Positions 26,630 through 47,133 of a DNA stretch of 64,000 bases are shown here, piece by piece. Where the stretch lies: assembly GCF_024502345.1 (NCBI RefSeq), contig NZ_JALDNN010000001.1; one strand, given 5' to 3'. Source of the DNA: Escherichia coli. GTDB taxonomy: Bacteria > Pseudomonadota > Gammaproteobacteria > Enterobacterales > Enterobacteriaceae. Below the pieces are notes generated by a model. The model did not search any database and was not told the origin of the DNA. It saw only the letters and a program-made list of their open reading frames with translations. Made by a program: the position numbers and the translations under genes. Each line of letters starts with the position of its first letter. The stretch's first letter is position 1.

Positions 26630-29600
26630 CTAGAGGTGTCCTCCAACCCCTTTAAATTTTTCGATAAATGCCCCAATTTTCTGGAATACAGTCTGCTTTT
26701 TCGTTTTGTACTGAGGATTCAGCGGACTGAGCTTTGGTAGCGTCTCATTTAGCTCCGTCCCATTTTCGGTGGCATACTCCCGTTTTAGTGATGTGCGGAT
26801 ATAGCGCCTTGCAGCCTCTTCATTGAGGTTTTCTTCCTTAATCAACGCCTCTGCTTCCCGTTGCTGTTCACGCTGAGCATAGGTAAAGAATGCATCAATG
26901 ATACTGGCCTTGTCCGGCATGTCATCAAGGTTAGTTTGCTGAATAAAGTCAACAATCAGACCTTCTTTGGCACGGTTGCCCAGACTTGAGCGGATTAAGC
27001 GTCTGACCTCTTCAGTCAGGGCTTCTTTACCTTTTTTCTGACGATTGTGGTCGAAAATCAGACCAAGGATGTAATCCAGGTTAATTTCCTGCGACTTCAG
27101 CAGGTCAATTTCAAACACCACGTCATCCCAGTCTGTGGTTGATTTATCCCTGTCGTTTGATGCTTTTTCGCGTCGCTGCCAGTCCCGGATATCATTGTAT
27201 GCTGAGCGATAGTCCTGAACTTTACGTTCTGCCGGGAGACGAATGGTTTGTAATTCAGCAAATTTTTCATCATCCACATAGTGCTCTGCTTTAAAGGTTT
27301 CTACCGCTTCCGGGTCACTAATATCAACCTTCTGCAGGGCTTTCAGCGTGGCAAATTCATCATAGTTTTGCAGGATGTTTTCTGCCCGCAGATATTCACC
27401 AAACAGTTTGACGAAGGCTTTTTTCTCTTTTTCACTGTCGATACTGGCAGGGTCAGGGAAGCGCTGCTCCAGCTCAGAGACAACAGCCATAAAACCTCGT
27501 TTAGCCTCACCGGTTGCCGCATCGGTAAAGCCCTGCATGTACTCTTCGTAGCTTTTTTCCAGCACCACATTCTTGGTGTTTTTGTCGCCGAAAAGTGTGA
27601 TGGCATCAATGGTCGGACGCTCCAGGTCCCTGAAAGTCACGATATTGCCGAAGGTTTTGGTTGCATCATAGATACGGTTGGTGCGTGAGAATGCCTGCAT
27701 CAGACCGTGATAACGCAGGTTTTTGTCAACGAACAGAGTATTGAGCGTCGGAGCATCAAAGCCAGTCAAGAACATTCCCACCACGATGAGAAGGTCAATA
27801 TCCTGATTTTTCACTCGTTGAGCTAAATCGCGGTAGTAGTTCTGGAAACCGTTACTGTCGGTGCTGAAATTGGTTTTAAAGTGGTTGTTATAGTCATCAA
27901 TGGCTGAATCCAGGAATTCCTTTGCGCTGCTGTTCATTGCACTGGTATCAAAACTTTCGTCGGTAATATCACCAATAGCGCTTTGCTCTTCATTAGCAGC
28001 AAAAGAGAAGATGGTTGCCACACGAAGACGTTTATAGCTGCCAGATTTCTTCTCAGCTTCTTCCTGTAGCATTTTAAATGTCGTGTAATAAGCTTTTGCC
28101 GCGTCCACGCTGCTCACTGCTAACATGGCATTGAAGCCTTTTGCTCCCGGGAAGGTACGATGCGTTTTCTGGCGGAAGTTATTGAGAATGTATTGCGTTA
28201 TTTCCTGGATACGCAGTGGGTGCAGAAAGGCCTGGTGGTTTTCAGCCGCGCTGAGTTTTTTCTCATCAGTTTCCGTTTCAAGAGACTTAAACTGTGGGCG
28301 GACATCGTTATAGTCCACCTTAAACTTCAGCACTTTTTCATCACGAATCGCATCAGTAATGACGTAAGAATGTAATTCACGCCCGAAGACGCTGGCGGTG
28401 GTTTCTGCCCCCAGTGCGTTTTCCGGGAAAATAGGTGTACCGGTAAAACCAAACTGATAAAAGCTTCTGAATTTCTTTTTGAGGTTTTTCTGGGCCTCAC
28501 CAAACTGGCTGCGGTGACACTCATCAAAGATAAACACAACCTGCTGCTGATAGACGGGCAGGTCAGCTTCGGCTTTCATCAGGTTATTGAGTTTCTGAAT
28601 GGTTGTGACGATAATTTTGTTATCGTCCTTATCCAGGTTTCTTCTGAGGCCAGCTGTATTATCCGAACCATTCACACTGTCCGGAGAGAAGCGCTGATAC
28701 TCCTTCATGGTCTGGTAATCGAGGTCTTTCCTGTCGACCACGAAGAAGACTTTATCAATAAAGTCCAGCTCGGTTGCCAGACGTGCGGCCTTAAAACTGG
28801 TCAACGTTTTACCGCTACCTGTGGTATGCCAGATAAACCCGCCGCTTTCGGGTTTTGACCAGTTCTTCGCTTTAAATGAGCTGTTAATTTTCCAGAGGAT
28901 TCGCTCAGTGGCAGCAATCTGATAGGGGCGCATGACGAGCAGCGTCTGGCTGCTGTCAAACACGCTGTAATTAAACAGAACATTCAGCAGAGTATGCTTC
29001 TGGAAGAAAGTGGCGGTAAAGTCCTTCAGGTCCTTAATCAGAGTGTTATCCGACTTTGCCCAGTTCATGGTGAAATCAAAGCTATTTTTATCCCGTTTAG
29101 TGGTACTGGCAAAGTACCGGGTATCAGTCCCGTTGGAAATCACGAAGAGTTGCAGGTATTTAAACAGGGAGTTATCGCTGTTAAAGCTTTCCTTGCTGTA
29201 ACGGTGTATCTGGTTAAAGGCTTCACGAATCGCCACACCGCGTTTTTTGAGTTCGATTTGCACCAGTGGAAGGCCGTTGACCAGAATGGTGACGTCATAA
29301 CGGTTAGCGTGTGAGCCAGTCTGCTCAAACTGCTGAATGACCTGCACCTTATTGCGCAGCAGGTTCTTTTTATCTATCAGATAGATGTTTTCCAGACGAC
29401 CATCATCAAACGTAAAATCACAGATATAGTCGATATGGATTTTACGGGTTTTGTCCAGGCTGCTGTCACTGGGACTGTCCAGATACTGCTCTGCGAAGCG
29501 CCGCCATTCACTTTCGTTAAACACCACACCATTAAGACGCTGAAGCTGGTCTCGCACATTCGCCAGCATCGCAGCCGGTGACTTAACGGAGATAAACTCA

Positions 29601-29746
29601 TACCCCTGATTAAGAAGGTCTTGAATCAGCTCCCGCTCAAGGTCCGATTCGCTCTGGTAACTCTCACCAGTTTCCTGAGCTTTAGAGTACTTATCAAGGA
29701 CGATAAAGTTATTGGATTCAGCAATAGTATGTGTCTGTTGTGTCAT
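26630..29746 (-). CDS. hsdR: Type I restriction enzyme R subunit (HsdR)
   Basis: 1038 aa; DEAD/DEAH-type helicase motifs (TGSGKT, DECH) in an HsdR-like architecture. Confidence 0.9.
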
Positions 29747-29861
29747 GGTGCATCCTGTGCGTCATCTGGCAAAGTCCGGAAGGGTATCAGAAACATCATC
29801 CGGCACTCGTAAAGCCTGATACCGGTAGGTGAAAGCAGACACTGCCGGTATCAGTGGCCTG

Positions 29862-31087
<1,226 letters not shown>

Positions 31088-31091
<4 letters not shown>

Positions 31092-32644
31092 TTCTGCACC
31101 TCGCAGCCTTCAATTTCAGCCACAATCGCATCAATATCTTTGCGCAACTGGTCGATTTTGCTGACCGTGGTTTTCAGCTCTGCATTCAACTCAGCGATAT
31201 CGATAATTTCGCGAGTATCTTTCGCTTCCACATAGCTGCTCACCGACAGGTTATAGTCATTCGCGACAACAGTCTCAAACGCAACAGATTTCGCCAGATG
31301 AGCAACATCTTCCTTGCTGGCAAATACCTGCATAATTTGTTCGATATGGGCATCGGTCAGGATATTGTTGTTGGTCTCTTTTTTGAATAGTTCACTGGCG
31401 TCAATAAACTGAACTTTGGTATCGGTTTTATGTTTAGACAACACCAGAATATTGACGGCAATAGTGGTGCCAAAGAACAGGTTCGGTGCCAGTGAAATCA
31501 CGGTTTCGACATAGTTATTGTCAACCAGGTACTGTCGGATTTTCTGCTCTGCACCGCCACGGTAAAAAATACCGGGGAAGCAAACTATTGCTGCACGCCC
31601 TTTAGCAGACAGGTAGTTCAGCGCATGTAGGACAAATGCAAAGTCCGCTTTTGATTTCGGGGCCAGTACACCAGCTGGAGCAAAGCGCTCATCGTTAATC
31701 AGGGTCGGGTCGTCACTGCCAATCCACTTAACCGAGTACGGCGGGTTAGAGACAATCGCATCGAACGGTTTTTCATCGCCAAAGTGAGGCTCAGTCAGGG
31801 TATTCCCCAGTCTGATATCAAATTTGTCGTAGTTGATGTTGTGCAGGAACATGTTCATACGCGCCAGGTTAAAGGTTGTATGATTTATCTCCTGACCATA
31901 AAAACCTTCTTCAATGATATGGTTATCAAAGTGCTTCTTCGCCTGAAGCAGCAGTGAACCAGAGCCAGCGGCAGGGTCATAGATTTTGTTGACGTGAGTC
32001 TGACCGTGCATCGCAAGCTGAGCAATCAGCTTGGAGACGTGCTGAGGTGTGAAGAACTCCCCTCCAGACTTACCGGCATTTGCCGCATAGTTAGAAATCA
32101 GGAACTCGTAGGCATCACCAAACAGGTCAATCTGGTGCTCGTTAAAATTCCCCAGGTTAAGCCCTTCAACGCCTTTCAGAACGGCGGCAAGACGGCTGTT
32201 TTTGTCTTTAACTGTGTTACCCAGTCGATTGCTGGTCGTATCGAAATCGGCGAACAGGCCTTTGATGTCGGCCTCGGACGGATAGCCGTAGGCAGAGCTT
32301 TCTATAGCGACGAAGATACTATTTAAATCAGCATTCAGCCTGTCGTTGGTGTTCGCTTTAGCGGCAACGTTGCAGAACAGCTGGCTCGGGTAGATGAAAT
32401 AGCCTTTAGTCCTGATGGCATCGTCTTTGATGTCATCGGTAATGATGCTGTCATCAAGTGCTGCATAATGTATGCTCTCATCCCCTGCTTCCATGTAGCT
32501 GGAAAAATTCTCACTGATGAAGCGGTAGAAAAGTGCACCGAGTACATACTGTTTAAAATCCCATCCATCTACTGAGCCCCTGACATCATTGGCAATGGCC
32601 CAGATTTGACGGTGTAGCTCTGCACGCTGTTGAAGGCTTGTCAT
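31088..32644 (-). CDS. hsdM: Type I R-M N6-adenine DNA methyltransferase subunit (HsdM)
   Basis: 518 aa with NPPY catalytic motif ([10 protein letters not shown]); stop overlaps hsdS start. Confidence 0.9.
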
Positions 32645-32847: not shown

Positions 32848-34725
32848 TCAGTCGGTGAGAATTTCTTCATCCGTATCCATTGTGGATGGTGATGAATCTA
32901 TTTTTGTTGTAAGAAATACCCGATTCAGTAGTCTTTGCTTCAGGGCGTTTCTTCGCTCATTGTAGAATTCCGGGAAGTGACTGAACTCAATATTTTCATC
33001 TGAAACTAACAGCATTGATGGCGAATAGTTGTTTGATGGCTGAGATAGCCATTGTTTCAGGGAAGTATCCTGTTTACTTATATTCTGAGAGTGATTCAGT
33101 AAATGAAGATTCGGTATGGTGTCCCAGTATTCCGGATTTTCATAAAAGCTGAGCTTCTCAGGTGAATTCGCAATATAATCTAGTTTTTCAAGATATTTCT
33201 TTGAAAAATGATTTCTTGGGTGAAGGTGATCAATATGAAATACCTCGGTTGGATTCATTTCAGGGAACAGAAGATGCAATAGTGCGCGGCAACGACCTTC
33301 GCCATATCTGATATTGAGAAGGCTTTCGATGTATTCGTCGTCAAATCTGAGGTCTTTATTCGAGCCTTTATATCTGTCAATAATCTTTTCAAGAGGAAAG
33401 TGAATATCTGAAAGACTATTTTTCATTACCTCTCTGATACTCGTGAGTAGCGCATCTGCCTGGCTTCCAAAGATCCCTTTCAGAAGTACCATGTAAAACC
33501 ACTGGCTAATTACTGAGCGTTCATTGTGGTTTTTATTCAGGAGGTTAATCGTTGTATATAATGGATGTCCACTGGTTTGCTTTTTGTAAAGCCAGTAGAC
33601 CACAGGAATGACTGCATTTTTAGATATCAAAGACTGTGGATTGATGCCGAATCGCCTGATAAGAATAAAGGTCTCCTTGATACAGGATTTTATTTCAGAC
33701 CATTGTTGTTGTATCTTACCGACCTCCTCTGAAGTGAAGTTTTTTACTTTGAACCGGACGTCAGAGTCAATAAGCATCAGGCTGGTTTTTAAGAACCAGT
33801 CTCTTTCAATATAAAAACCCATTTCATTATTCTGATAAATGTTTTTTGTCAGTTCATCCAGTTCTCTTCTGAAATCCCCCTGCCAGTGCGCTACCGCTAT
33901 TGACATCAGTAAGTCTGAAAACTCAAGTTTTGTCCCCCCGCTGTTCGTGCGGATGAAAACATCCAGCACATGATCAATGTCCTGACTGCTCTCATTGAAG
34001 TAGTGGATAAGATTCTCAGTTCTTATCTTGGTATAAAGTTTAAGCAGAGTTTTTCTGGAAAATTCACTGGAAATGAGATCTCTTTTTTCAAGTTCTGGTA
34101 CGACAACGTTAAATAAAATATCATCAGGCGAATCATGTTGCTCGTATTTGAATATTTCGTGCAGGCAGAACCAGTGATGTTTGTTGTCTGTAAGTGAATC
34201 AGCGTATTGCTTGTCGGTCAGGAACCTGAAGTTATACTTCATCATGAGTTCGTCGTCTGACTTAAGTGGCGCGGTTAAATCGACGTAAAGCTTTCTGGGC
34301 GGCAGGATGCGATCATCCTGTGCCGAAGGCCACCACATCCGGGGCTGTTTATACGCATACGTTCCACACAATCCAATATATAATGATGTGAGACGCTGCT
34401 GACCATCAATCACCGCTTTGAAATCATGAAATCCAGCATTTGTTGCTACGCAGGGGTTTTCTTCATTAAATCGCTGACAGTATTCTTTCAGGAATTCATA
34501 GAATTTGTAATCATTTTTAATACTGGCACTACGGATATCCCACATCATGAAAGAGTTTATCGGGTAGTCTCGCATGATGGAATCAAACAGCAAACATATC
34601 TGACTGCTGCTCCAGACGAACTTCCTCTGAATTGCAGGCAGAAGATAGTGGCGTAAATTAATTGAATCTATCGCTTGTTTTATCGTTATTGCTTTTTCAT
34701 ACTGGCCAGCCATCATAAACCTCAT
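32848..34725 (-). CDS. DUF262 (ParB/GmrS-like) plus DUF1524 (His-Me finger, GmrD-like) two-domain protein; candidate Type IV (modification-dependent) restriction or defense nuclease
   Basis: 625 aa; N-terminal ...IQRKFVW...VIDGQQRLTSLYIGL; C-terminal HIDHLHPRNHFSKK; AT-rich coding sequence. Confidence 0.75.
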   Translation of the reverse strand: MRFMMAGQYEKAITIKQAIDSINLRHYLLPAIQRKFVWSSSQICLLFDSIMRDYPINSFMMWDIRSASIKNDYKFYEFLKEYCQRFNEENPCVATNAGFHDFKAVIDGQQRLTSLYIGLCGTYAYKQPRMWWPSAQDDRILPPRKLYVDLTAPLKSDDELMMKYNFRFLTDKQYADSLTDNKHHWFCLHEIFKYEQHDSPDDILFNVVVPELEKRDLISSEFSRKTLLKLYTKIRTENLIHYFNESSQDIDHVLDVFIRTNSGGTKLEFSDLLMSIAVAHWQGDFRRELDELTKNIYQNNEMGFYIERDWFLKTSLMLIDSDVRFKVKNFTSEEVGKIQQQWSEIKSCIKETFILIRRFGINPQSLISKNAVIPVVYWLYKKQTSGHPLYTTINLLNKNHNERSVISQWFYMVLLKGIFGSQADALLTSIREVMKNSLSDIHFPLEKIIDRYKGSNKDLRFDDEYIESLLNIRYGEGRCRALLHLLFPEMNPTEVFHIDHLHPRNHFSKKYLEKLDYIANSPEKLSFYENPEYWDTIPNLHLLNHSQNISKQDTSLKQWLSQPSNNYSPSMLLVSDENIEFSHFPEFYNERRNALKQRLLNRVFLTTKIDSSPSTMDTDEEILTD

Positions 34726-35156: not shown

Positions 35157-35870
35157 TTAATTACGATTATTCGTCTGTTTACTCCCGTAATGCATTATCT
35201 TATGAATAATGTTCATGTGGGGTAAGGCTTCCATAAAGTCAGACTGTTCAATCAGCGAAATGAGTGTGTTATCGATCTCAAACGTTGTATCCGGTAATAC
35301 CTCAACCAGCCTGATTCGGGACAGGGAAATAACGAACACGCCCGATGACGTACATCCGGCAAGAAACCACTCCGCATGGCTGCAAAGCAGACGGTAGGGA
35401 TGAACGGTATGGCTGACGTTTTCGTCGGTTCTGATACGCACCTGGGTCTGGTTAAGTATGGCGAGCGTCAGTCTGCTGAAATCACCGAAAAGGGTGGGTT
35501 TCTGGCGCGGCTCCGGTAGCATAATCCTGTATGGCGAGGGACGTTCCCCGTCAAGCATCAGGCTCAGTAGTTTGGCATCCATCGCGGGTAACAGACGGTC
35601 AAGATGCAGCAACCTCGCCAGTATCTTCATATCCCGTTCCGTGCGGCGACGAAAGTAATGTGAGGCAAGCTGATACACGCCGTTGCTCTGTTCAATATCA
35701 AGGTAGGTCAGACGGACGTTGAAATCCCGTCGCAGCGTTCGCGTCGTCACTCCAAATTCTTCTGCCAGCGTCCCGATATGCAGCTTTTCACCCTGAAACA
35801 AACGGCTCAGGATGATGGAAAGGCGGGTTGCCAGTCTGTCATGTTCGTTTTCTTGTGTTATCAGCGTCAT
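35157..35870 (-). CDS. HTH plus WYL-domain transcriptional regulator (YfjR / BrxR-like)
   Basis: 237 aa; N-terminal HTH LHIGTLAEEFGVTTRTLRRDFN, C-terminal ligand-binding-type region. Confidence 0.7.
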   Translation of the reverse strand: MTLITQENEHDRLATRLSIILSRLFQGEKLHIGTLAEEFGVTTRTLRRDFNVRLTYLDIEQSNGVYQLASHYFRRRTERDMKILARLLHLDRLLPAMDAKLLSLMLDGERPSPYRIMLPEPRQKPTLFGDFSRLTLAILNQTQVRIRTDENVSHTVHPYRLLCSHAEWFLAGCTSSGVFVISLSRIRLVEVLPDTTFEIDNTLISLIEQSDFMEALPHMNIIHKIMHYGSKQTNNRN

Positions 35871-37081: not shown

Positions 37082-38404
37082 ATGAAACCCGATAGTTCTT
37101 TAAACCAAATAACGCAGACAATGAAACGGAATGATGTTGATTCTGTGGATAGTCGCTTTTTTGAGTCAGCGCAAAACATGAAAACCAGCGTTGACGTTGA
37201 AGATTGCTGCGTTGAAGTGATGGTTCGACATCACAGCCCAAAGAATCAAAGAGAGGCATTCACTAAAGCTTTTTTTGATGAGTGTAAAATCCGTGCAGTA
37301 CAAACTGGCCGGACTATCGAAGCCAGCGATACAAAATGTACCGGGCTTAAGGCTATATTCCACTCATCCGGACGCATTAAGTTTATTGTCCGCAAAAGTA
37401 TTCGCGGAAAGAATGTTTACGTTGCAGTAGGAAGTTACCCTGAATTTTCCATTAATAACGCAAGGGAACATGCCTTTAAAATAATTCAGGAGCTTAAGGC
37501 TTCCGTTGAGACTTATGGTGAGCGTTTTCTTACGCACAGCAAAATAACGTTTAATGAACTTGTGGAACAGTATGTGAAATGCGTACTTAACACGGGCGTT
37601 AAGCGTTCAGCTAACACCGACCTTTCTAAGATCCGTAAATACCTGCGCCCTCTTCTCGGTGACAAAAAGCTGGCAGGTATGACGGAGGCAGATGTTCTGA
37701 GCTATCTACACGATCTCGATCTTAAGCCTGCCACACGCAACCGCCACCTGGCGCTCATTAAAGCGGTCTTTACCTGGGCTATACGCATGGGATACACCAG
37801 CCGCTCTCCGGCGCTTTATATCAAAGCGCTGCCTGAAGTGACGTCAGATCGCCGCGCCATGGATGACTCCCAGCTTCAGCGCTGGATGGAAGTCTGTGAG
37901 TGCTGGCGTAATGGTAAACCCGATCATGAAGCCCTTGCTCTGCTCATGTTCCTTGCCCTGACGGGGCTGCGTCTGGGGGAAACCCGTCACCTTCGTCTTG
38001 AAGATGTGGACTGGAGCCGCAAGGTTATCACCCTTCGCCATACCAAAAACGGCAAACTCCGCCGTGTACCGGTATGTGATAAGGCTTTCGTTCTTCTGAC
38101 AGAACAGCGTCAGCATCTGGGTGATGAAGGCTGGGTATTTCCGGGCAAGGGGACCGACAATCCGGTTTCTGAGCCGCGTCGCCTGCAAAAACGGCTTTGT
38201 GAGGCTGCGGGTATTCCACCGTTCACCATCCATGAGATGCGCCATACCTTTGCGACAAAACTCATTGAGAGCGGGGCCGACATTCACACCGTCAAAGACT
38301 TACTGGGCCACAGCACTATCAAAGTGACGGAGCTTTACTTGCACGCTTCCCCGGCGCGTTACCACGAAGCTGTTAACCGGGCGATGAATGTTTTTCCGGC
38401 CTAA
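37082..38404 (+). CDS. Tyrosine site-specific recombinase / integrase (not P4-type)
   Basis: 440 aa; C-terminal catalytic signature ...FTIHEMRHTFATKLIESGADIHTVKDLLGHSTIKVTELYLH. Confidence 0.8.
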   Translation: MKPDSSLNQITQTMKRNDVDSVDSRFFESAQNMKTSVDVEDCCVEVMVRHHSPKNQREAFTKAFFDECKIRAVQTGRTIEASDTKCTGLKAIFHSSGRIKFIVRKSIRGKNVYVAVGSYPEFSINNAREHAFKIIQELKASVETYGERFLTHSKITFNELVEQYVKCVLNTGVKRSANTDLSKIRKYLRPLLGDKKLAGMTEADVLSYLHDLDLKPATRNRHLALIKAVFTWAIRMGYTSRSPALYIKALPEVTSDRRAMDDSQLQRWMEVCECWRNGKPDHEALALLMFLALTGLRLGETRHLRLEDVDWSRKVITLRHTKNGKLRRVPVCDKAFVLLTEQRQHLGDEGWVFPGKGTDNPVSEPRRLQKRLCEAAGIPPFTIHEMRHTFATKLIESGADIHTVKDLLGHSTIKVTELYLHASPARYHEAVNRAMNVFPA

Positions 38405-38476: not shown

Positions 38477-39172
38477 ATGAATAATAAATCAACACCATCC
38501 CCCTTGACTACAACGACCCCCGCTCGTTTTGCCTGCAGGAAATTAAATGCATTTCTGGCTCGTCGTGCTCTTCATATGAAGGTGGTAAGAAAAAACCTGA
38601 ACAAGGCTGCTGCAATCGACATCGATCTCGATGACATTTCTAAGTGCGGATGCCGTGATGGTCTGCCTGAAGGCTTTGTCAATACTGCAAAAGGGCTTTT
38701 CTATTATGAAGGAAAAAAATGGTACCAGTTAAGCTCGACCCCCATTCTCCCTGTCTACAGGCATTATTCTGATTGTAAAACGCGCAATATGGGCGTCGAG
38801 TTGATGACTATCAACCATGCTGGAGAGTTCGCCTGTGCTGATGTCTCATTAAGTGATGCAATGGTAAAACCTGATCACGTCATGGCTTCTCTGGCGGGCA
38901 AAGGTTTTGGTATCTCCCTGACGATAAAGTCTAAAGAGCTTCTGGTGCAATTCTTACAGGTGTGTATGAAGAAATCGCTGGAATTGCCTACTTATCTTGT
39001 CGCAGATTCGATGGGTTTTGTGCCTGGCAACAAAGCATTTCTTCACGGCAGTATACCTATCGCGCAGCACCTTTTGGAATTTGACTATTTGATTCCGGCT
39101 TCCCGTGTTCCACGAGGGCTTGTCGAGTCGGGAACGCTGGATGACTGGAAAACGATGGTACCTGTGAAATGA
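38477..39172 (+). CDS. Hypothetical protein downstream of the integrase
   Basis: 231-aa ORF with AAGGA-type SD; 3' end overlaps convergent ORF 39085-39468. Confidence 0.4.
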   Translation: MNNKSTPSPLTTTTPARFACRKLNAFLARRALHMKVVRKNLNKAAAIDIDLDDISKCGCRDGLPEGFVNTAKGLFYYEGKKWYQLSSTPILPVYRHYSDCKTRNMGVELMTINHAGEFACADVSLSDAMVKPDHVMASLAGKGFGISLTIKSKELLVQFLQVCMKKSLELPTYLVADSMGFVPGNKAFLHGSIPIAQHLLEFDYLIPASRVPRGLVESGTLDDWKTMVPVK

Positions 39173-39577: not shown

Positions 39578-40228
39578 TTAACTGAGAGCGGGTAAGGACT
39601 GAATAAATCCCGGGTCTTCAACAAGACGACACAGACTGTCGTTACGCCGGAAAGTCTCCTGCAGGGGCTGAACCAGATGGATTTCATCCAGGGAGAATAC
39701 GGCGATATGTCCGTCGTGCTCTGCCACCAGATACCAGGCCTGCTGGTGGATAAGTAACCGGCAGGGAGCCAGCCGCTCACAGCGCTGCCCCTCGGCAATC
39801 AGAGTCACCCGCCTGCGCCCGGTAATGGCCTGAATCAGTCGCCAGAAAGACAATGCGCCTGATGGCGAAGGAGCCGGACTGGCGGGTGCGATTACGCAGG
39901 GAGACTCATCGCACATCAGCAGTGCGTTTACCAGACGACGGTCAAAGCCAGGGAAAAGACCGGCCATCCCGCTGCGGTGGGCAAAGATAAGCACGTCGGG
40001 CACCATCTGCGTCTCACTGCCCGCAGTGCGTAAGCGGTAATATCCGGACTGATACTCCAGGTCCAGATACATCAGCCGCTCACGAAAATCACGCCGCAGC
40101 GTGCGCACCGACACACCAAACTCAGCGGCAAGCTTACGCACACTCAGCGTTTCCCCTGCCACCAGACGGCTGATTATCAGTGACAGCCTGACAGCCAGCC
40201 GGTCATGGCGGCGTTCTGCCTGTGTCAT
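39578..40228 (-). CDS. HTH plus WYL-domain transcriptional regulator (YfjR-like), paralog of 35157-35870
   Basis: 216 aa; [28 protein letters not shown]; same architecture as the first WYL regulator. Confidence 0.7.
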
Positions 40229-40444: not shown

Positions 40445-41266
40445 TCACTGCAGTTGCGTGAGCAGGGCTTCCGCCATCACCCACAGTGCCCGGTTAAGTT
40501 TCACGTCCCCGTCGATACCGCGAACGGCACGGGTATGTGACCGTCCTCCTTTGGCATTACGGCCACTGAGCCCGCCCTTAATCAGGTTCTCCTGAATACG
40601 CTGGTACGTGGTCCACAGGTCATTGCTCTCATCCTGCCAGCGGCGAGGGGAGAGGATCTGCGATTCAGTCACCGGCTGGTGGTCTTCACCAAAGCGGTAT
40701 GTGAGGGCGGCTTTTGCCAGTGCCTGCTGTGCCGGGGGTGGCAACAGCAACGACTGCATGGCATCCCGTTTCTCCTCCACCCGGTCAAAAATCCCCAGCA
40801 CCTCATACGCGCCTTCAATCACCTGACTCACCACGTCCCCCTTGTGTGGCACCCGCACCTCGCCAAACGACTCACCGCAGACGAGCCCGTTCTGACAAAC
40901 CGCACGAAATAGTCCCGGCAACATCTGATACGAACTAGTGCCATCGTGGGAGTTGAGCAGGATAATTTCTGGTACCTGTTTACCGGTAATCTGCCCCTCA
41001 CGCCGCAGACGCAGCATATGCTTTGTATGTTCACGACGACCGGGGTCACGCACGCGGGTCTGACAGGCAAAGAATGGCTGGAAGCCTTCTCGCTGTAGGC
41101 TGTCGAGCAGGGAGATGGTAGGTATATAGGTATAACGCTCACTGCGGGATTCATGTTTGTCCTCGCTGAATACACTGGGCACCACGCGAAACAGCTCCTC
41201 ACGGGTTAACGGGCGGTCGCGACGGATAAGGTTTGCTGCGCCAAAGCGCGAAGCCAGACGGGTCAT
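40445..41266 (-). CDS. DUF932-family protein (YfjQ-like)
   Basis: 273 aa from MTRLASRFGAANLIRRDRPLTREELF; sits in the YfjP-YfjQ-YfjR order of CP4-type islands. Confidence 0.6.
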   Translation of the reverse strand: MTRLASRFGAANLIRRDRPLTREELFRVVPSVFSEDKHESRSERYTYIPTISLLDSLQREGFQPFFACQTRVRDPGRREHTKHMLRLRREGQITGKQVPEIILLNSHDGTSSYQMLPGLFRAVCQNGLVCGESFGEVRVPHKGDVVSQVIEGAYEVLGIFDRVEEKRDAMQSLLLPPPAQQALAKAALTYRFGEDHQPVTESQILSPRRWQDESNDLWTTYQRIQENLIKGGLSGRNAKGGRSHTRAVRGIDGDVKLNRALWVMAEALLTQLQ

Positions 41267-41357: not shown

Positions 41358-42221
41358 TCAGAAGAAGAAATCCCAGACGGCACGGGCCACTGACACCACG
41401 GTGGTGCGCACGGCCTGAATGACGGCCCGCACCGGGGCGGGGATCAGGGGAAAGGCACTGATGCTATCGAGTACAGCACCGACGGTTTCACCAAAATCGC
41501 TACGCGCCTGTTCCCGGACTACCGTCGTGCGAAAGGAAGGCTGGAGTTGCGACACCACCGGGCTGGTGGCCTCACGTGGCAGGCACTTAATCATTCGCTC
41601 GGCCATCACCCGCAGTCCCCACTGAAGACGGACCGACACGGCACACACTGGATGTACGGGCTGGAACAGCTCATGCAGCAGGCAGATTTTGCGGCTGATA
41701 TTCTGCTTCTGCGCCGTGGACAACTGTCCCCCACCGCTGGTAGGTTCGGCCTTATCCGACTGGCTGATAACAAACAGCACCTTATGCCGGTATACCTCTC
41801 CAATCACCTGATGATAAAAATGTTCATCCACCGTCAGCGCCCGGTCATCGGCCTTAATCAGCCACAGTACCAGGTCGAGGCGAGGAAGCTGTTCGCGGTA
41901 CAGCGCAGCATACTCGGTATCGCGAGCACCACTTTCGCCCACGCCGGGCAGATCCATCAGCGTTATATAGCGGTCGCCAACCTGCAGGCGAAAGCGCAGT
42001 GGCTCACGTGTACAGGCCGCCACATCGCTGACCGGTGATACCTCACTGGCAAACAGGGCATTGCAGAGTGAGGATTTACCGGCACCGCTCTTACCCATAA
42101 TGCCGATCACTGGCTCGTAGCGGGTTAACTGATTTATCTGCTGCAATATACGTTCAGACACCCACTGTGGCAGACCAGCGAGCGATTGCTGAAACGGCTT
42201 CAATCCTTCAGAATTGTTCAT
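41358..42221 (-). CDS. YfjP/YeeP/YkfA-family GTPase
   Basis: 287 aa from MNNSEGLKPFQQ; P-loop GIMGKSGAGKSSL and DLPG motif. Confidence 0.7.
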   Translation of the reverse strand: MNNSEGLKPFQQSLAGLPQWVSERILQQINQLTRYEPVIGIMGKSGAGKSSLCNALFASEVSPVSDVAACTREPLRFRLQVGDRYITLMDLPGVGESGARDTEYAALYREQLPRLDLVLWLIKADDRALTVDEHFYHQVIGEVYRHKVLFVISQSDKAEPTSGGGQLSTAQKQNISRKICLLHELFQPVHPVCAVSVRLQWGLRVMAERMIKCLPREATSPVVSQLQPSFRTTVVREQARSDFGETVGAVLDSISAFPLIPAPVRAVIQAVRTTVVSVARAVWDFFF

Positions 42222-42327
42222 TACTACTCCTCTGAAAAATAATACAAAAACGGCAGAATCGTGAGATTCCACCGTTAATCTGGTATGTTCAAAGGGATGA
42301 TATATATCTGAAAATTATTAACTTGAT

Positions 42328-43254
42328 CTACTTTTTGTCTTTTTTACGTGATGAAACAGCCTGCAGCCAAGCATGCTTCATTTTCTGAATAAAGAAATAT
42401 TTTTCTTCAACTCCAGTGTCCCAACTATCCATGCATGCAATGATCATCTGTATTCTCATTGCAGTGTTATATGGTTTTAAATAAAAGGGGATCATATTTT
42501 TATTTCTCAGATACTCCCAGCAATAGATAGCTTGCTTTTCATCTTTTTTATCTAGCCAGTCATAATCAGTAAGAAATGTATTATATTGCTCTAGCCATTT
42601 ATCATGCAACTTACGAAAATAGGAAATTTTCTGACTTAAACTTACAGGAGCTAAATCAATAAACCTCATCAAAGTACAAATGCGTTCTTGTTCGGATGTT
42701 GTATTCGGGCTGTAGTTGTCGGGATCTGCGCCAGATGTTAAATAAAATCTACGCGAGTATTTTTCAGGTATATCTCTATTTTTTTCTTTATTGCTAGGGG
42801 AGGTTCCCACCTGCATTTCGGCTTGTACTTCATCAAGTGAGAAATTTTTAATTTCATCAATGTTTATAAATTCAAAAAAGGATGCAGGAGTTGAGTTCGG
42901 GTTGTAAATATTATCTTGTGCAAAGATATTCACGCTCGAGGAGGTTTCAGGACTGATTCTGTTGTTATATATATACATTAAGGCAAACCACGATCCTCTA
43001 TCAGAACCTTTGAAACAATCGAACTTCTCTTTGTCAATGATTTTGTAATGGAACTGTTTTTTCAAGTAAGTACGCGCACTTTGTATTGCTTCATTATTGA
43101 ATAGGAATTTAGTGTTCAATATATGATTAATGAGTTTTTGAAATTCCTCAGGCGTGTCGAAATTACTCGCCTGCTTAATGTAATCTTCGTTGTAATACAG
43201 ACTCAGAACGTAAAGGGAAAAGAACTCCTCTCTCACTTCGTCATACCTAAGCAT
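42328..43254 (-). CDS. Hypothetical low-GC 308-aa protein, Asn/Lys/Tyr/Phe-rich
   Basis: Long ORF in strongly AT-rich DNA, first gene of the co-oriented block containing the YfjP/YfjQ/WYL genes. Confidence 0.5.
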   Translation of the reverse strand: MLRYDEVREEFFSLYVLSLYYNEDYIKQASNFDTPEEFQKLINHILNTKFLFNNEAIQSARTYLKKQFHYKIIDKEKFDCFKGSDRGSWFALMYIYNNRISPETSSSVNIFAQDNIYNPNSTPASFFEFINIDEIKNFSLDEVQAEMQVGTSPSNKEKNRDIPEKYSRRFYLTSGADPDNYSPNTTSEQERICTLMRFIDLAPVSLSQKISYFRKLHDKWLEQYNTFLTDYDWLDKKDEKQAIYCWEYLRNKNMIPFYLKPYNTAMRIQMIIACMDSWDTGVEEKYFFIQKMKHAWLQAVSSRKKDKK

Positions 43255-43572
43255 GTACCCTCCAGTGTGATATCACATCTGTCCGATGCTTTCAAAAGTA
43301 TAAATGAACCATGATGATTTGGCATCTGCAAGGTGACTGTTGACTGGTTTTTTGCTGATTTTTTAATGATAAAGTAGTGATTACTAACTGATTAGTAAGT
43401 GATTAATGGCTGGTTGCCTCCTGTGATTTTTCTGCCTCTGGTAAATTGGGGGAGAGTACTGATCAACTCACCACTCTGAATAATTTTCATGATTGCACTC
43501 TACAAAGTTTCGACATCCGTCAAATTGTAACGGTCAGAGAACAGCGTTACACGAGGTTTTCCGTATCTATGC

Positions 43573-44629
43573 GGCTTTGTTGAATAAATCGAACTTTTGC
43601 TGAGTTGAAGGATCAGATCACGTATCTTCCCGACAACGCAGACCGTTCCGTGGCAAAGCAAAAGTTCAAAATCACCAACTGGCCCACCTACAATAAAGCC
43701 CTCATCAACCGTGGCTCCATAACTTTCTGGCTGGATGATGAAGCTATTCAGGCCTGGTATGAGTCAGCAACACCTTCTTCACGAGGCAGACCTCAGCGCT
43801 ATTCTGACCTTGCCATCACGACTGTGCTGGTCATTAAACGCGTATTCAGGCTGACCCTGCGCGCTGCGCAGGGCTTTATTGATTCCATTTTTTCTCTGAT
43901 GAACGTTCCGCTACGCTGCCCGGATTACAGCTGTGTCAGCAGGCGGGCAAAGTCGGTTAATGTCAGTTTCAAAACGCCCACCCGGGGTGAAATCGCACAC
44001 CTGGTAATTGATTCCACCGGGCTGAAGGTCTTCGGTGAAGGCGAGTGGAAAGTCAAAAAGCATGGCCAGGAACGCCGCCGTATCTGGCGTAAGCTGCATC
44101 TCGCCGTTGACAGTAAAACACATGAAATCATCTGCGCTGACCTGTCGCTGAACAACGTTACGGACTCAGAGGCCTTCCCCGGGTTAATCCGGCAAACCCA
44201 CCGGAAAATCAGGTCAGCCGCCGCCGATGGCGCTTACGATACCCGGCTATGTCACGATGAACTGCGGCGTAAGAAAATCAGCGCGCTTATCCCTCCCCGA
44301 AAAGGTGCGGGTTACTGGCCCGGTGAATATGCAGACCGTAACCGTGCAGTGGCTAATCAGCGAATGACCGGGAGTAATGCGCGGTGGAAATGGACAACAG
44401 ATTACAACCGTCGCTCGATAGCGGAAACGGCGATGTACCGGGTAAAACAGCTGTTCGGGGGTTCACTGACACTGCGTGACTACGATGGTCAGGTTGCAGA
44501 GGCTATGGCCCTGGTACGAGCGCTGAACAAAATGACGAAAGCAGGTATGCCTGAAAGCGTGCGTATTGCCTGAAAACACAACCCGCTACGGGGGAGACTT
44601 ACCCGAAATCTGATTTATTCAACAAAGCC
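43573..44629 (+). mobile_element. IS903-group (IS5 family) insertion sequence, complete, 1057 bp, no target-site duplication
   Basis: Terminal inverted repeats GGCTTTGTTGAATAAATC at 43573-43590 and 44612-44629; flanking 9-mers tatctatgc vs actgtgttt differ. Confidence 0.9.
43605..44573 (+). CDS. IS903-type transposase
   Basis: 322-aa ORF MKDQITYLPDNADRSVAKQKFKITNWPTYNKALINRGSITFWLDDEAIQAWY... with DDE motif region. Confidence 0.9.
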   Translation: MKDQITYLPDNADRSVAKQKFKITNWPTYNKALINRGSITFWLDDEAIQAWYESATPSSRGRPQRYSDLAITTVLVIKRVFRLTLRAAQGFIDSIFSLMNVPLRCPDYSCVSRRAKSVNVSFKTPTRGEIAHLVIDSTGLKVFGEGEWKVKKHGQERRRIWRKLHLAVDSKTHEIICADLSLNNVTDSEAFPGLIRQTHRKIRSAAADGAYDTRLCHDELRRKKISALIPPRKGAGYWPGEYADRNRAVANQRMTGSNARWKWTTDYNRRSIAETAMYRVKQLFGGSLTLRDYDGQVAEAMALVRALNKMTKAGMPESVRIA

Positions 44630-45024: not shown

Positions 45025-45636
45025 ATGCTTAATGATATTTATCTTGACCAACGTCATGCCCCATTCAATACAACGTATTTGCAACGGATGCTGGGTGTAA
45101 TTGATAACGCTATAGCACAACACCCAAGGACAATGGCTGTCCGTGTCGATCTACGTCTGCCTGATGACAACTGTAATAGGAATAGTGGTCTGATATCCCG
45201 TTTCATTGAATCGCTTAATGCAAAAATCGATGCTCGGTACCGAAATAAAATAAAGAATGGCATCAGGAGCTACCCATGCCAGTTGCGTTACGCCTGGGTT
45301 CGGGAAGTGGGAGAAATAAACGAGAAGTCCCATTACCACATGGTACTTTTCGTGAACAAAGACACATTCAATGGACTTGGGAGCTATGGAGAAGGGGGAA
45401 CGGGATTAGCCAGCCTGATACGTGAAGCCTGGCTGAGCGCTTTGCAACTAGGCCCTTACCCCGAATACCGAACGTTGGTCCACATCCCGGACAACCCATT
45501 GTATTACCTGGACGTCAATAATTTAGACTACAAAACGGTTTACGATAAACTCACTTTCAGGCTGAGTTATTTTGCGAAAGAGCGCACCAAGTCATACAGC
45601 CGAGATGAACGCTCGTTTGGCTGCAGTCAGTCCTGA
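45025..45636 (+). CDS. YagK/YfjJ-family protein (inovirus Gp2-like), CP4-type island backbone
   Basis: 203 aa; MLNDIYLDQRHAPFNTTYLQRM...YHMVLFVNKDTF pattern recalled for YfjJ/YagK. Confidence 0.55.
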   Translation: MLNDIYLDQRHAPFNTTYLQRMLGVIDNAIAQHPRTMAVRVDLRLPDDNCNRNSGLISRFIESLNAKIDARYRNKIKNGIRSYPCQLRYAWVREVGEINEKSHYHMVLFVNKDTFNGLGSYGEGGTGLASLIREAWLSALQLGPYPEYRTLVHIPDNPLYYLDVNNLDYKTVYDKLTFRLSYFAKERTKSYSRDERSFGCSQS

Positions 45637-45941: not shown

Positions 45942-46176
45942 ATGAGCGGGCATGAGGTAATGGTACAAAGAATAACCGCTATTATTGCAGAACTTTACCA
46001 GTACGGTTTTGTATCACGTAAGAAGATGATGGACGAATTCAACATCAGTGAGCGTACTTTGTATCGTGATCTTAATCGTCTGGGCGACAGAATCGTCCCC
46101 GATGGTGATGGTATTTACAGGCTGGCTCCCGCTTACGCTAAACCTCAGGCTCTAAAAGAACAACAAAATCTCGGCC
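45942..46176 (+). pseudogene. HTH (DeoR-like) regulator gene, 5' fragment (~78 codons), joined without IS to appC
   Basis: MSGHEVMVQRITAIIAELYQYGFVSRKKMMDEFNISERTLYRDLNRL; frame runs into appC sequence at ~46175. Confidence 0.45.
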
Positions 46177-47133
46177 ATGTTTATTATGGCGATCAGCGCC
46201 TGGTATTTACTGCGCGGACGGGAGCGCGATGTCGCATTACGCTCGTTTGCCATCGGTTCCGTCTTCGGTACTCTGGCGATTATTGGCACGCTGCAACTCG
46301 GAGACAGTTCTGCGTATGAAGTCGCGCAAGTACAACCGGTAAAACTGGCGGCGATGGAAGGGGAGTGGCAAACGGAACCTGCACCTGCACCGTTCCATGT
46401 GGTTGCCTGGCCGGAACAGGATCAAGAGCGTAACGCCTTTGCCATCAAAATTCCCGCGCTGCTAGGGATCCTCGCCACTCACTCATTAGATAAACCCGTG
46501 CCGGGTCTGAAGAATTTGATGGCTGAAACCTACCCACGCTTGCAACGCGGACGTATGGCCTGGCTGTTAATGCAGGAAATATCGCAAGGCAATCGTGAGC
46601 CGCATGTGTTGCAGGCATTCCGGGAACTGGAAGGTGACCTGGGCTACGGCATGTTGCTCTCCCGCTATGCGCCGGATATGAATCATGTCACAGCCGCACA
46701 GTACCAGGCGGCGATGCGTGGTGCAATACCTCAGGTTGCGCCGGTATTCTGGAGTTTCCGCATCATGGTGGGCTGTGGTTCCCTGCTGCTACTGGTGATG
46801 CTGATTGCGCTTGTCCAGACGCTGCGTGGCAAAATCGACCAGCATCGCTGGGTGCTGAAAATGGCGCTCTGGAGTTTGCCGTTGCCGTGGATTGCGATTG
46901 AAGCCGGGTGGTTTATGACCGAGTTTGGTCGTCAGCCGTGGGCGATACAGGACATCTTACCGACATACTCCGCGCACTCCGCCTTAACCACAGGACAACT
47001 GGCTTTCTCACTGATCATGATCGTAGGGCTTTACACCCTGTTCTTAATCGCCGAAGTCTACCTGATGCAGAAATATGCCCGTCTGGGGCCGAGCGCGATG
47101 CAGAGTGAACAACCGACGCAGCAACAGGGGTAA
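46177..47133 (+). pseudogene. appC: Cytochrome bd-II oxidase subunit I (AppC/CbdA), 3' portion only (~318 of ~514 codons)
   Basis: C-terminal AppC sequence ...WIAIEAGWFMTEFGRQPWAIQDILPTYSAHS...; N-terminal heme-binding half absent. Confidence 0.8.

Follow-up and report, generated by a model that had tools for sequence, protein, structure and literature searches.

An AT-rich gene of a CP4-57-like island of Escherichia coli belongs to a hypervariable alpA-side family and may have a role in island control

Background

What is the product of an AT-rich gene, with no recognizable motif, which stands upstream of a YfjP-like GTPase gene in a CP4-57-like island of Escherichia coli? Does it belong to the defence cargo of the island or to its control? 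The gene is found in a stretch of 64,000 nucleotides from contig NZ_JALDNN010000001.1 of assembly GCF_024502345.1, which we will call the window, and it codes for a protein of 308 amino acids (aa). A first-pass annotation, made from the sequence alone, presented it as an orphan at the head of a block of island genes and as a candidate accessory or defence gene. We have found instead that it belongs to a family of unnamed genes which keep a fixed place beside alpA, have very divergent alleles and code for proteins most of which appear to end in a DNA-binding domain. With these features, regulation of the island is a likelier role for it than defence against phages.

AlpA is the excision and activation switch of such islands. 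Comparable islands of Pseudomonas were described in 2025: their core contains int, alpA, an inovirus Gp2-like gene, RadC and YqaJ, accompanied by defence cargo (PMC12595487). Islands of that class are transduced by a jumbo phage (PMC12595487).

The gene and its protein

The gene and its expression signals are placed in the window as follows:

42328-43254, minus strand: coding sequence of the 308-aa protein, an open reading frame (ORF) started by ATG, equal to WP_001547760.1 of E. coli G3/10
43258-43263, minus strand: Shine-Dalgarno sequence GGAGGG, read off the sequence, 3 nt from the ATG
43297-43325, minus strand: putative sigma-70 promoter ATGCCA-17-TATACT, predicted by a consensus scan

The Shine-Dalgarno sequence is also kept in Kluyvera. 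The orthologous locus of this genus has the same -10 element TATACT with the same spacing, and its -35 element is CTGTCA.

The ORF is a genuine protein-coding gene under purifying selection, since selection, annotated identical copies and a confident AlphaFold2 (AF2) fold all agree. Compared with the Kluyvera intermedia orthologue (78% amino-acid identity), the ratio of nonsynonymous to synonymous substitution rates (dN/dS) is 0.17 overall; it falls to 0.11 in the C-terminal domain and rises to 0.27 in the linker. The G3/10 copy is an annotated coding sequence, 100% identical to the one in the window. The gene is present in 28 of 5426 complete E. coli genomes, with 99.3-100% identity; the copies in the genomes listed among these 28 are intact and annotated as 'hypothetical protein' WP_001547760.1. 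The chance of 308 open codons at the base composition of the gene is about 4e-11. The possibility of a pseudogene remnant, which had been raised before, does not agree with an intact frame, a dN/dS of this size and a confidently predicted fold.

The gene has a guanine plus cytosine content (GC) of 0.350, and of 0.37 at third codon positions (GC3), to be compared with 0.575 for the GTPase gene, 0.580 for the DUF932 gene and 0.50 for the whole window. It is indeed far more AT-rich than its neighbours, as was noted in the first-pass annotation. This property is common to the family: in nine of nine other islands the relatives have GC values of 0.33-0.42, and the adjoining GTPase genes 0.51-0.59. 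Because relatives in other islands are equally AT-rich, the step in GC is a standing property of the locus and no sign of a recent separate acquisition.

No family in Pfam or NCBIfam matches the 308-aa protein, no defence family of PADLOC-DB 2.0 does so at E<=1, and the only matches in PHROGs are not significant (E >= 0.11). The lack of recognizable motifs is therefore borne out. We built an AF2 model on an alignment of 74 sequences. It has a predicted local distance difference test score (pLDDT) of 83 and a predicted template modelling score (pTM) of 0.76, with two well-defined all-helical domains:

Residues about 1-105: first all-helical part of the AF2 model, with helical domain 1 at about 8-100
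Residues about 106-179: acidic disordered linker of about 70 residues, with low AF2 confidence at 110-175
Residues about 180-308: C-terminal part, formed by helical domain 2 (about 185-281) and a basic C-terminal helix (282-307)

The protein contains an internal duplication: residues 25-99 are homologous to residues 178-252 (hhalign probability 97.7%, E 1.9e-12). The isoelectric point (pI) is 4.5 in the linker and 10 in the last helix. As modelled, the protein is soluble and all-helical, with two homologous helical-bundle domains of about 90 residues.

The family

The 308-aa protein is not an orphan. A word-indexed search gave eight close relatives and no more; a full HMMER scan of 1.84 billion representatives gave at least 84 clusters (50% identity) at E<=1e-3 in Gammaproteobacteria, which have the C-terminal core of the protein in common. 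Full-length relatives, with E values from 1e-150 to 1e-25, are found in Kluyvera, Buttiauxella, Budvicia, Yersinia and Salmonella. The predicted fold recurs in AFDB50 in dozens of proteins labelled 'uncharacterized' and about 300 aa long, which come from Enterobacterales, Vibrio, Aeromonas, Halomonadaceae, Acinetobacter and other groups. The members of this island family (WP_001547760.1, UniProt A0A853H5R9 and A0A2C6BVW2) have in common full-length homology, the predicted two-domain fold and a place on the alpA/yagK side of their islands.

Distant relatives mostly share residues 180-305 of our protein and then run on for about 45 residues. This tail has weak Pfam matches to RHH_1/CopG and RepB-RCR_reg, where RHH stands for ribbon-helix-helix; among PDB sequences it matches CopG, an RHH protein of the HP0222 type and MatP. 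Some relatives are labelled 'ribbon-helix-helix' or 'CopG family' by their sources. The AF2 model of one RHH-bearing relative (P0047) shows the two-domain fold; at its end an extended stretch leads into two helices, which agrees with an RHH. Judging from these matches, the family, which has no name and no Pfam or NCBIfam model, consists mostly of members that end in an RHH DNA-binding domain. In a scan of IMG/VR with alignment A4 we found a single locus, L063 (UViG_2751185776_000007), with 36% identity over 57 residues; the match takes in the conserved AW-QKK region together with the first part of the RHH tail. It is the only contig from a viral collection with a relative.

The clade of our protein differs from most of the family: it stops just after the basic helix and lacks the C-terminal RHH. 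We looked for the RHH module (beta-strand, helix, helix) in the 308-aa protein and it is absent; the chain ends 14 residues past KMKHAW. The members of this clade, in E. coli, Kluyvera, Buttiauxella, Budvicia, Yersinia and Salmonella, stop 12-22 residues past the same motif. A frameshifted remnant of the RHH has no room in the spacer of 106 bp which precedes the ATG of the GTPase gene. The RHH-less clade spans 32-79% identity to our protein, which suggests that the loss of the RHH is old and stable.

The match with MatP deserves some comment. MatP has a helical bundle, an RHH and a coiled coil, and a profile of the RHH-bearing relatives matches MatP chains with E 5e-4. The match spans a helix with the motif W-x-W-x-Y-L, the basic helix and the RHH; hhalign reaches 77.6% across the basic helix and the RHH. 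When the RHH is trimmed from the profile, E rises to 34-50 at the size of the PDB database, and hhalign aligns just the 13-residue W-x-W-x-Y-L motif, with a probability of 10%. We have rejected a MatP-like label for the 308-aa protein: the match is carried by the RHH and the basic linker that precedes it, and the RHH is absent here. We also rejected the NCBI name 'Rho GTPase-activating protein' of the Budvicia aquatica homologue (P0008, L002 10001-11089), which has no Pfam domain behind it and should not be taken to imply a link with the adjacent GTPase.

Position beside alpA and diversity of alleles

An alpA homologue is found 0.3-2.2 kb upstream of the family gene in all 25 loci, on the opposite strand in 24 of them. 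Thirteen contexts were annotated with Pfam: E. coli, Kluyvera, Buttiauxella, Budvicia (two), Yersinia (two), Salmonella, Vibrio, Shewanella, Kushneria and two metagenomic contigs. All of them have a Phage_AlpA and/or YagK_YfjJ_C gene immediately upstream on the opposite strand, and in all of them a YagK_YfjJ_C ('inovirus Gp2 family') gene is nearby. In Enterobacterales a YfjP-like GTPase gene follows about 100 bp downstream on the same strand, whereas the loci of Vibrio, Shewanella and Kushneria have the family gene and no YfjP-type GTPase. Since the family gene stays beside alpA and yagK where the GTPase is missing, its deepest association is with the alpA/yagK module and not with the GTPase. 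The G3/10 locus, identical to ours, has the family gene divergent from alpA and beside yagK. In the window alpA is deleted and yagK remains:

45025-45636, plus strand: YagK/YfjJ-type 'inovirus Gp2 family' gene, from the ORF and the G3/10 annotation

The gene keeps its strand and position at 15-30% identity across orders of Gammaproteobacteria. In 19 loci the median pairwise identity of the family gene is 30% (range 18-97%), to be compared with 71% for alpA, 77% for the GTPase and 88% for DUF932. The distances between family genes are not correlated with those of any flank (Mantel p 0.16-0.9), while the GTPase and DUF932 genes vary together (r=0.86). The alleles of the family gene are thus hypervariable and shuffled relative to their flanks. 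Within one type of allele the selection is purifying. Old and divergent alleles reshuffled among conserved backbones are seen at the immunity regions of phages, at Stl of the Staphylococcus aureus pathogenicity islands (SaPI) and also in arms-race genes.

Two other identities were considered for the gene and discarded. A partition cassette, formed by an RHH protein and the adjacent GTPase, is contradicted by the lack of co-variation, by the two thirds of GTPase loci without the gene and by the presence of the family without a GTPase in Vibrio, Shewanella and Kushneria. Homology with YfjH, YfjM or YfjI of K-12 is not detectable. YfjH (b2623; L068 2645-3601) does resemble the family: it has 318 aa, a GC of 0.37, a basic C-terminal tail and a direction divergent from alpA. 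However, it lies on the integrase side of alpA and has no detectable homology with the family, either by hidden Markov model (HMM) or by hhalign.

Phased repeats upstream of the gene

A repeat array precedes the putative promoter:

43353-43428, minus strand: [A/T]ATCA array, directly upstream of the putative -35 element of the 308-aa gene

Five [A/T]ATCA copies lie exactly 11 bp apart, with starts at 43404, 43393, 43382, 43371 and 43360; a sixth copy starts at 43428. None of 5000 dinucleotide-preserving shuffles reached the observed run, and the same result was obtained for the Kluyvera and Buttiauxella loci. Salmonella has a variant of the phased repeat, TCAG(T/C), which the shuffles did not match either. 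In the 842 kb of DNA that we fetched, in-phase runs of three or more copies precede genes of the RHH-less clade (E. coli, Kluyvera, Buttiauxella and Budvicia) and occur nowhere else. Islands whose allele has the RHH, islands without an allele and CP4-57 of K-12 all have alpA but no such array. It therefore travels with the RHH-less clade of the gene. From its placement, the array is plausibly a binding site for the 308-aa protein or a part of the promoter cassette. Its identification as an AlpA site is weakened: alpA is present in all the islands and the array accompanies the RHH-less clade only.

Repeats of this kind recall iterons, and the protein might be an accessory DNA-binding factor of the YagK/YfjJ protein (inovirus Gp2-like, HUH), marking an origin for replication or transfer within the control region. 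Relaxases and rolling-circle Rep proteins are helped by RHH accessory proteins, every annotated context has a YagK_YfjJ_C gene nearby, the 11-bp phasing is iteron-like, and the RHH tails weakly match the RepB-RCR_reg, CopG, plasmid RepA regulator and BfmA N-terminal models. We consider this role unlikely nevertheless: the RHH has been lost in our clade, the array is missing from yagK islands with RHH-bearing alleles or with no allele, and many yagK islands lack a gene of the family.

The variable slot and its defence cargo

We surveyed the slot upstream of the GTPase gene in 48 loci, anchored on the GTPase and with one genome per species. A family member is present in 14 of them, about 100 bp upstream of the GTPase in 13 and 1 kb upstream in the other. 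Because about two thirds of similar islands lack it, the family gene is dispensable for the island. Four of the loci have in this slot a different AT-rich protein of 246-253 aa, with an RHH-like N-terminus (MIKRITFNTDDNLTIDSIDRYAESNGTSRSKVICELL). Its gene immediately precedes the GTPase leader, diverges from an ORF of 192-212 aa (probably YagK-like) and may be analogous in function to the family gene; it is found at these positions:

L020 4118-4879: alternative AT-rich slot protein
L021 4118-4879: the same
L025 4116-4877: the same
L055 4169-4909: the same

The other GTPase loci mostly have large genes of unrelated families in the slot, on the opposite strand. We tested ten slot occupants, which are proteins next to the GTPase leader in islands of other species without the family gene. 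Seven of them match PADLOC: TmtA, HEC-06/SspE-like, PDC-S60 (twice), E1-E2 of the cyclic-oligonucleotide-based anti-phage signalling system (CBASS) and a type III methyltransferase. In CP4-57 of K-12 the slot between yfjJ and yfjP is occupied by abpB-abpA, yfjM and rnlAB. The previous description of this place as a variable cargo slot upstream of a YfjP-like GTPase, used by defence and toxin-antitoxin genes, is thus supported by K-12 and by the matching occupants.

Is the 308-aa gene one more cargo gene? It could be defence or anti-defence cargo, either a sensor or effector that works alone or a protein that blocks the defences of the host, with its diversity driven by an arms race against phages or the immunity of the host. 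RnlAB, AbpAB and other CP4-57 cargo occupy the same slot, between a yfjJ-type gene and the yfjP leader. Unlike them, the 308-aa gene is single and has no homology with them, and the 106 bp between it and the GTPase gene contain only a promoter box and a hairpin. A type II toxin-antitoxin system like RnlAB was discarded: there is no match in NCBIfam, Pfam or PADLOC and no partner ORF on either side. More generally, slot cargo consists of unrelated families, mostly on the opposite strand, whereas the 308-aa family is conserved at its position, with fixed strand and place by alpA. The protein has no PADLOC match and no enzymatic or effector domain, most members of its family have an RHH, and tblastn searches against plasmids and phages gave no homologue. 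Furthermore, the islands that carry the family gene have recognizable defence cargo elsewhere, beyond alpA and yagK: MmeI-type restriction-modification, SIR2_2, DUF1156/SNF2 and HsdM. We regard defence cargo as possible but rather doubtful, and the 308-aa protein is probably not a defence effector. The earlier proposal of an accessory or defence gene is supported as far as the variable, defence-rich slot goes; the association of the family with alpA and the RHH of most members point to regulation rather than to a defence effector.

The neighbouring GTPase operon

Downstream of the 308-aa gene the window has the following features:

42222-42320, minus strand: GTPase leader, about 100 nt before the GTPase ATG; also found in L015-L061 and L068 12580-12713
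42249-42302, minus strand: start of the GTPase control region, with a box containing a TATCAT -10 element (42302-42297) and a GC-rich hairpin with a U-run (42276-42249)
41358-42221, minus strand: YfjP-like GTPase gene, from the annotation of the identical G3/10 locus and MMR_HSR1 Pfam matches on orthologues
40445-41266, minus strand: DUF932 (YfjQ-like) gene, from the ORF and the G3/10 annotation
39578-40228, minus strand: WYL-domain regulator gene (YfjR-like), from the ORF and the G3/10 annotation

The order of these genes, GTPase, DUF932 and WYL, is the one given in the first-pass annotation, and it matches both the ORFs and G3/10. A different conclusion is reached for the place of the 308-aa gene at their head. 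The leader of about 100 nt is conserved in 46 of 47 elements, whether the family gene is present or not, and also upstream of yfjP in K-12. It opens with the box TTTCAGAT(A/C)(T/G)ATAT(C/T)AT, followed by the hairpin and U-run and then by a Shine-Dalgarno sequence. Genomic SELEX (systematic evolution of ligands by exponential enrichment) has given a sigma-70 promoter TTGAAA-15-TATCAT for ykfA and yfjPQ (PMC3946193); the TATCAT of the leader box is the -10 element of that promoter. Compensatory changes are found at all seven pairs of the hairpin predicted by RNAalifold, and no family in Rfam matches the leader. The hairpin could be an attenuator, a terminator or a 5' stabilizer of the operon. 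The GTPase operon thus appears to have its own promoter and leader, right after the stop codon of the 308-aa gene, which would make the latter a separate unit and not the head of the block.

State of the island in the window

On its other side the gene is bounded by an insertion sequence, as had been noted:

43573-44629, plus strand: IS903, with inverted repeats at 43573-43590 and 44612-44629 and a transposase ORF at 43605-44573

This copy has no target-site duplication. Alignment with G3/10 shows that it replaces 358 bp (L001 13374-13731), which contain the alpA-type gene and the alpA-proximal part of the control region. With this deletion the island in the window has lost its excision activator alpA. 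The backbone is also truncated, near 39159, by another element with its own integrase:

37082-38404: tyrosine integrase gene of the abutting element
26630-32644: type I restriction-modification system of the abutting element, with hsdR at 26630-29746 and hsdM at 31088-32644
29862-31091: putative hsdS, placed by position and with no family match

Two further ORFs, 32848-34725 (625 aa) and 35157-35870 (237 aa), have no match in NCBIfam. At the junction of the island with the chromosome an ORF at 45942-46319, with an N-terminus like a helix-turn-helix, runs into appC (cbdA), which is truncated at its 5' end and lies at 46177-47133. This gene codes for subunit I of cytochrome bd-II, and the same truncation is annotated in G3/10.

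The 308-aa gene could also be a passenger, an AT-rich remnant silenced by H-NS and with no current function in this strain, in an island already deprived of alpA, of its right-hand half and of its mobility. AT-rich DNA is a usual target of H-NS, and the loss of alpA to IS903, the truncated backbone and the truncated appC point in the same direction. The gene itself does not look like a remnant: its frame is intact and identical to that of strains with an intact alpA, selection on it is purifying (dN/dS 0.17 for the whole gene, 0.11 for the C-terminal domain), and AF2 predicts its fold with confidence. A passenger without function is therefore quite improbable.

Discussion

We tentatively propose that the 308-aa protein is a factor, encoded by the island itself, which regulates the control region on the alpA side or gives it its specificity. 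Four observations lead us to this proposal. Most members of the family have an RHH, and the other AT-rich protein of the slot has an RHH-like N-terminus; the gene is invariably arranged in divergence from alpA; the diversity of alleles is like that of immunity genes; and a clade-specific repeat array lies beside the promoter. The family gene, transcribed divergently from alpA in islands of the integrase/AlpA/YfjJ type, would have a role comparable to that of a phage immunity repressor or of Stl in SaPI. The protein might act in two ways. It could attach, through its tandem domains and basic helix, to the ATCA repeats that precede its own promoter with 11-bp phasing, or else it could work through contacts with other proteins, for example AlpA. 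DNA binding, regulation and the target are in both cases features which we infer.

Several facts weigh against a regulator. The 308-aa protein lacks the RHH, the sole recognizable DNA-binding element of the family, and the likeness of its relatives to MatP vanishes once the RHH is trimmed off the profile. The whole protein is close to neutral, with a pI of 6.5. The gene is missing from about two thirds of the islands that are otherwise similar, and the slot before the YfjP-type GTPase gene has been shown to be a hotspot of defence genes. Hypervariability and shuffling of alleles are equally typical of arms-race genes. The ATCA array might instead be a site for AlpA, a set of iterons or a stretch of curved DNA. 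In the library that we searched no paper mentions the accessions of the protein, and papers on yfjP, yfjQ, alpA and island excision do not describe the gene.

The comparison with Stl and phage repressors has a definite extent. Like them, the family gene is divergent from the excision and activation gene and has divergent alleles in conserved backbones, and most members of the family appear to have a DNA-binding domain. Unlike them, the 308-aa protein has no recognizable domain of this type; there is no kinship in sequence or fold, so that the likeness is a functional analogy only. Many related islands lack the family gene, and repression or induction by a helper would be attributed to it purely by analogy. 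A bolder version of the proposal is that the family sets the specificity of induction or immunity in defence islands of the AlpA/YfjJ type. The tandem domains, possibly similar to death folds, would sense a helper phage, a plasmid or an island protein. This input would be passed on to the switch for excision and activation by the RHH or, in our clade, by the phased ATCA repeats or a direct contact with AlpA. We consider this version improbable; if it were true, the family would do in Gram-negative bacteria, for a class of transducible islands that is widespread, what Stl does for SaPI.

A surprising mechanism for the 308-aa protein is beyond the present evidence; the gene is a concrete and testable lead into the control of CP4-57-like islands. 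Among the carriers of anti-phage systems in Gammaproteobacteria, Enterobacterales included, these islands and those of the AlpA/YfjJ type are some of the main ones. To our knowledge their silencing, induction and movement are poorly understood beyond AlpA. A hypervariable gene with a fixed position on the alpA side, mostly RHH-bearing, would be an obvious candidate for a control or specificity module. If the family should instead belong to defence or anti-defence, it would be a new single-gene family with an unusual tandem-domain fold. If our protein is a regulator, it would be an RHH-type island regulator that has dispensed with the RHH and has novel tandem domains; it would give a handle on the induction of islands and explain a recurrent AT-rich 'hypothetical protein' which annotation pipelines leave without a name.

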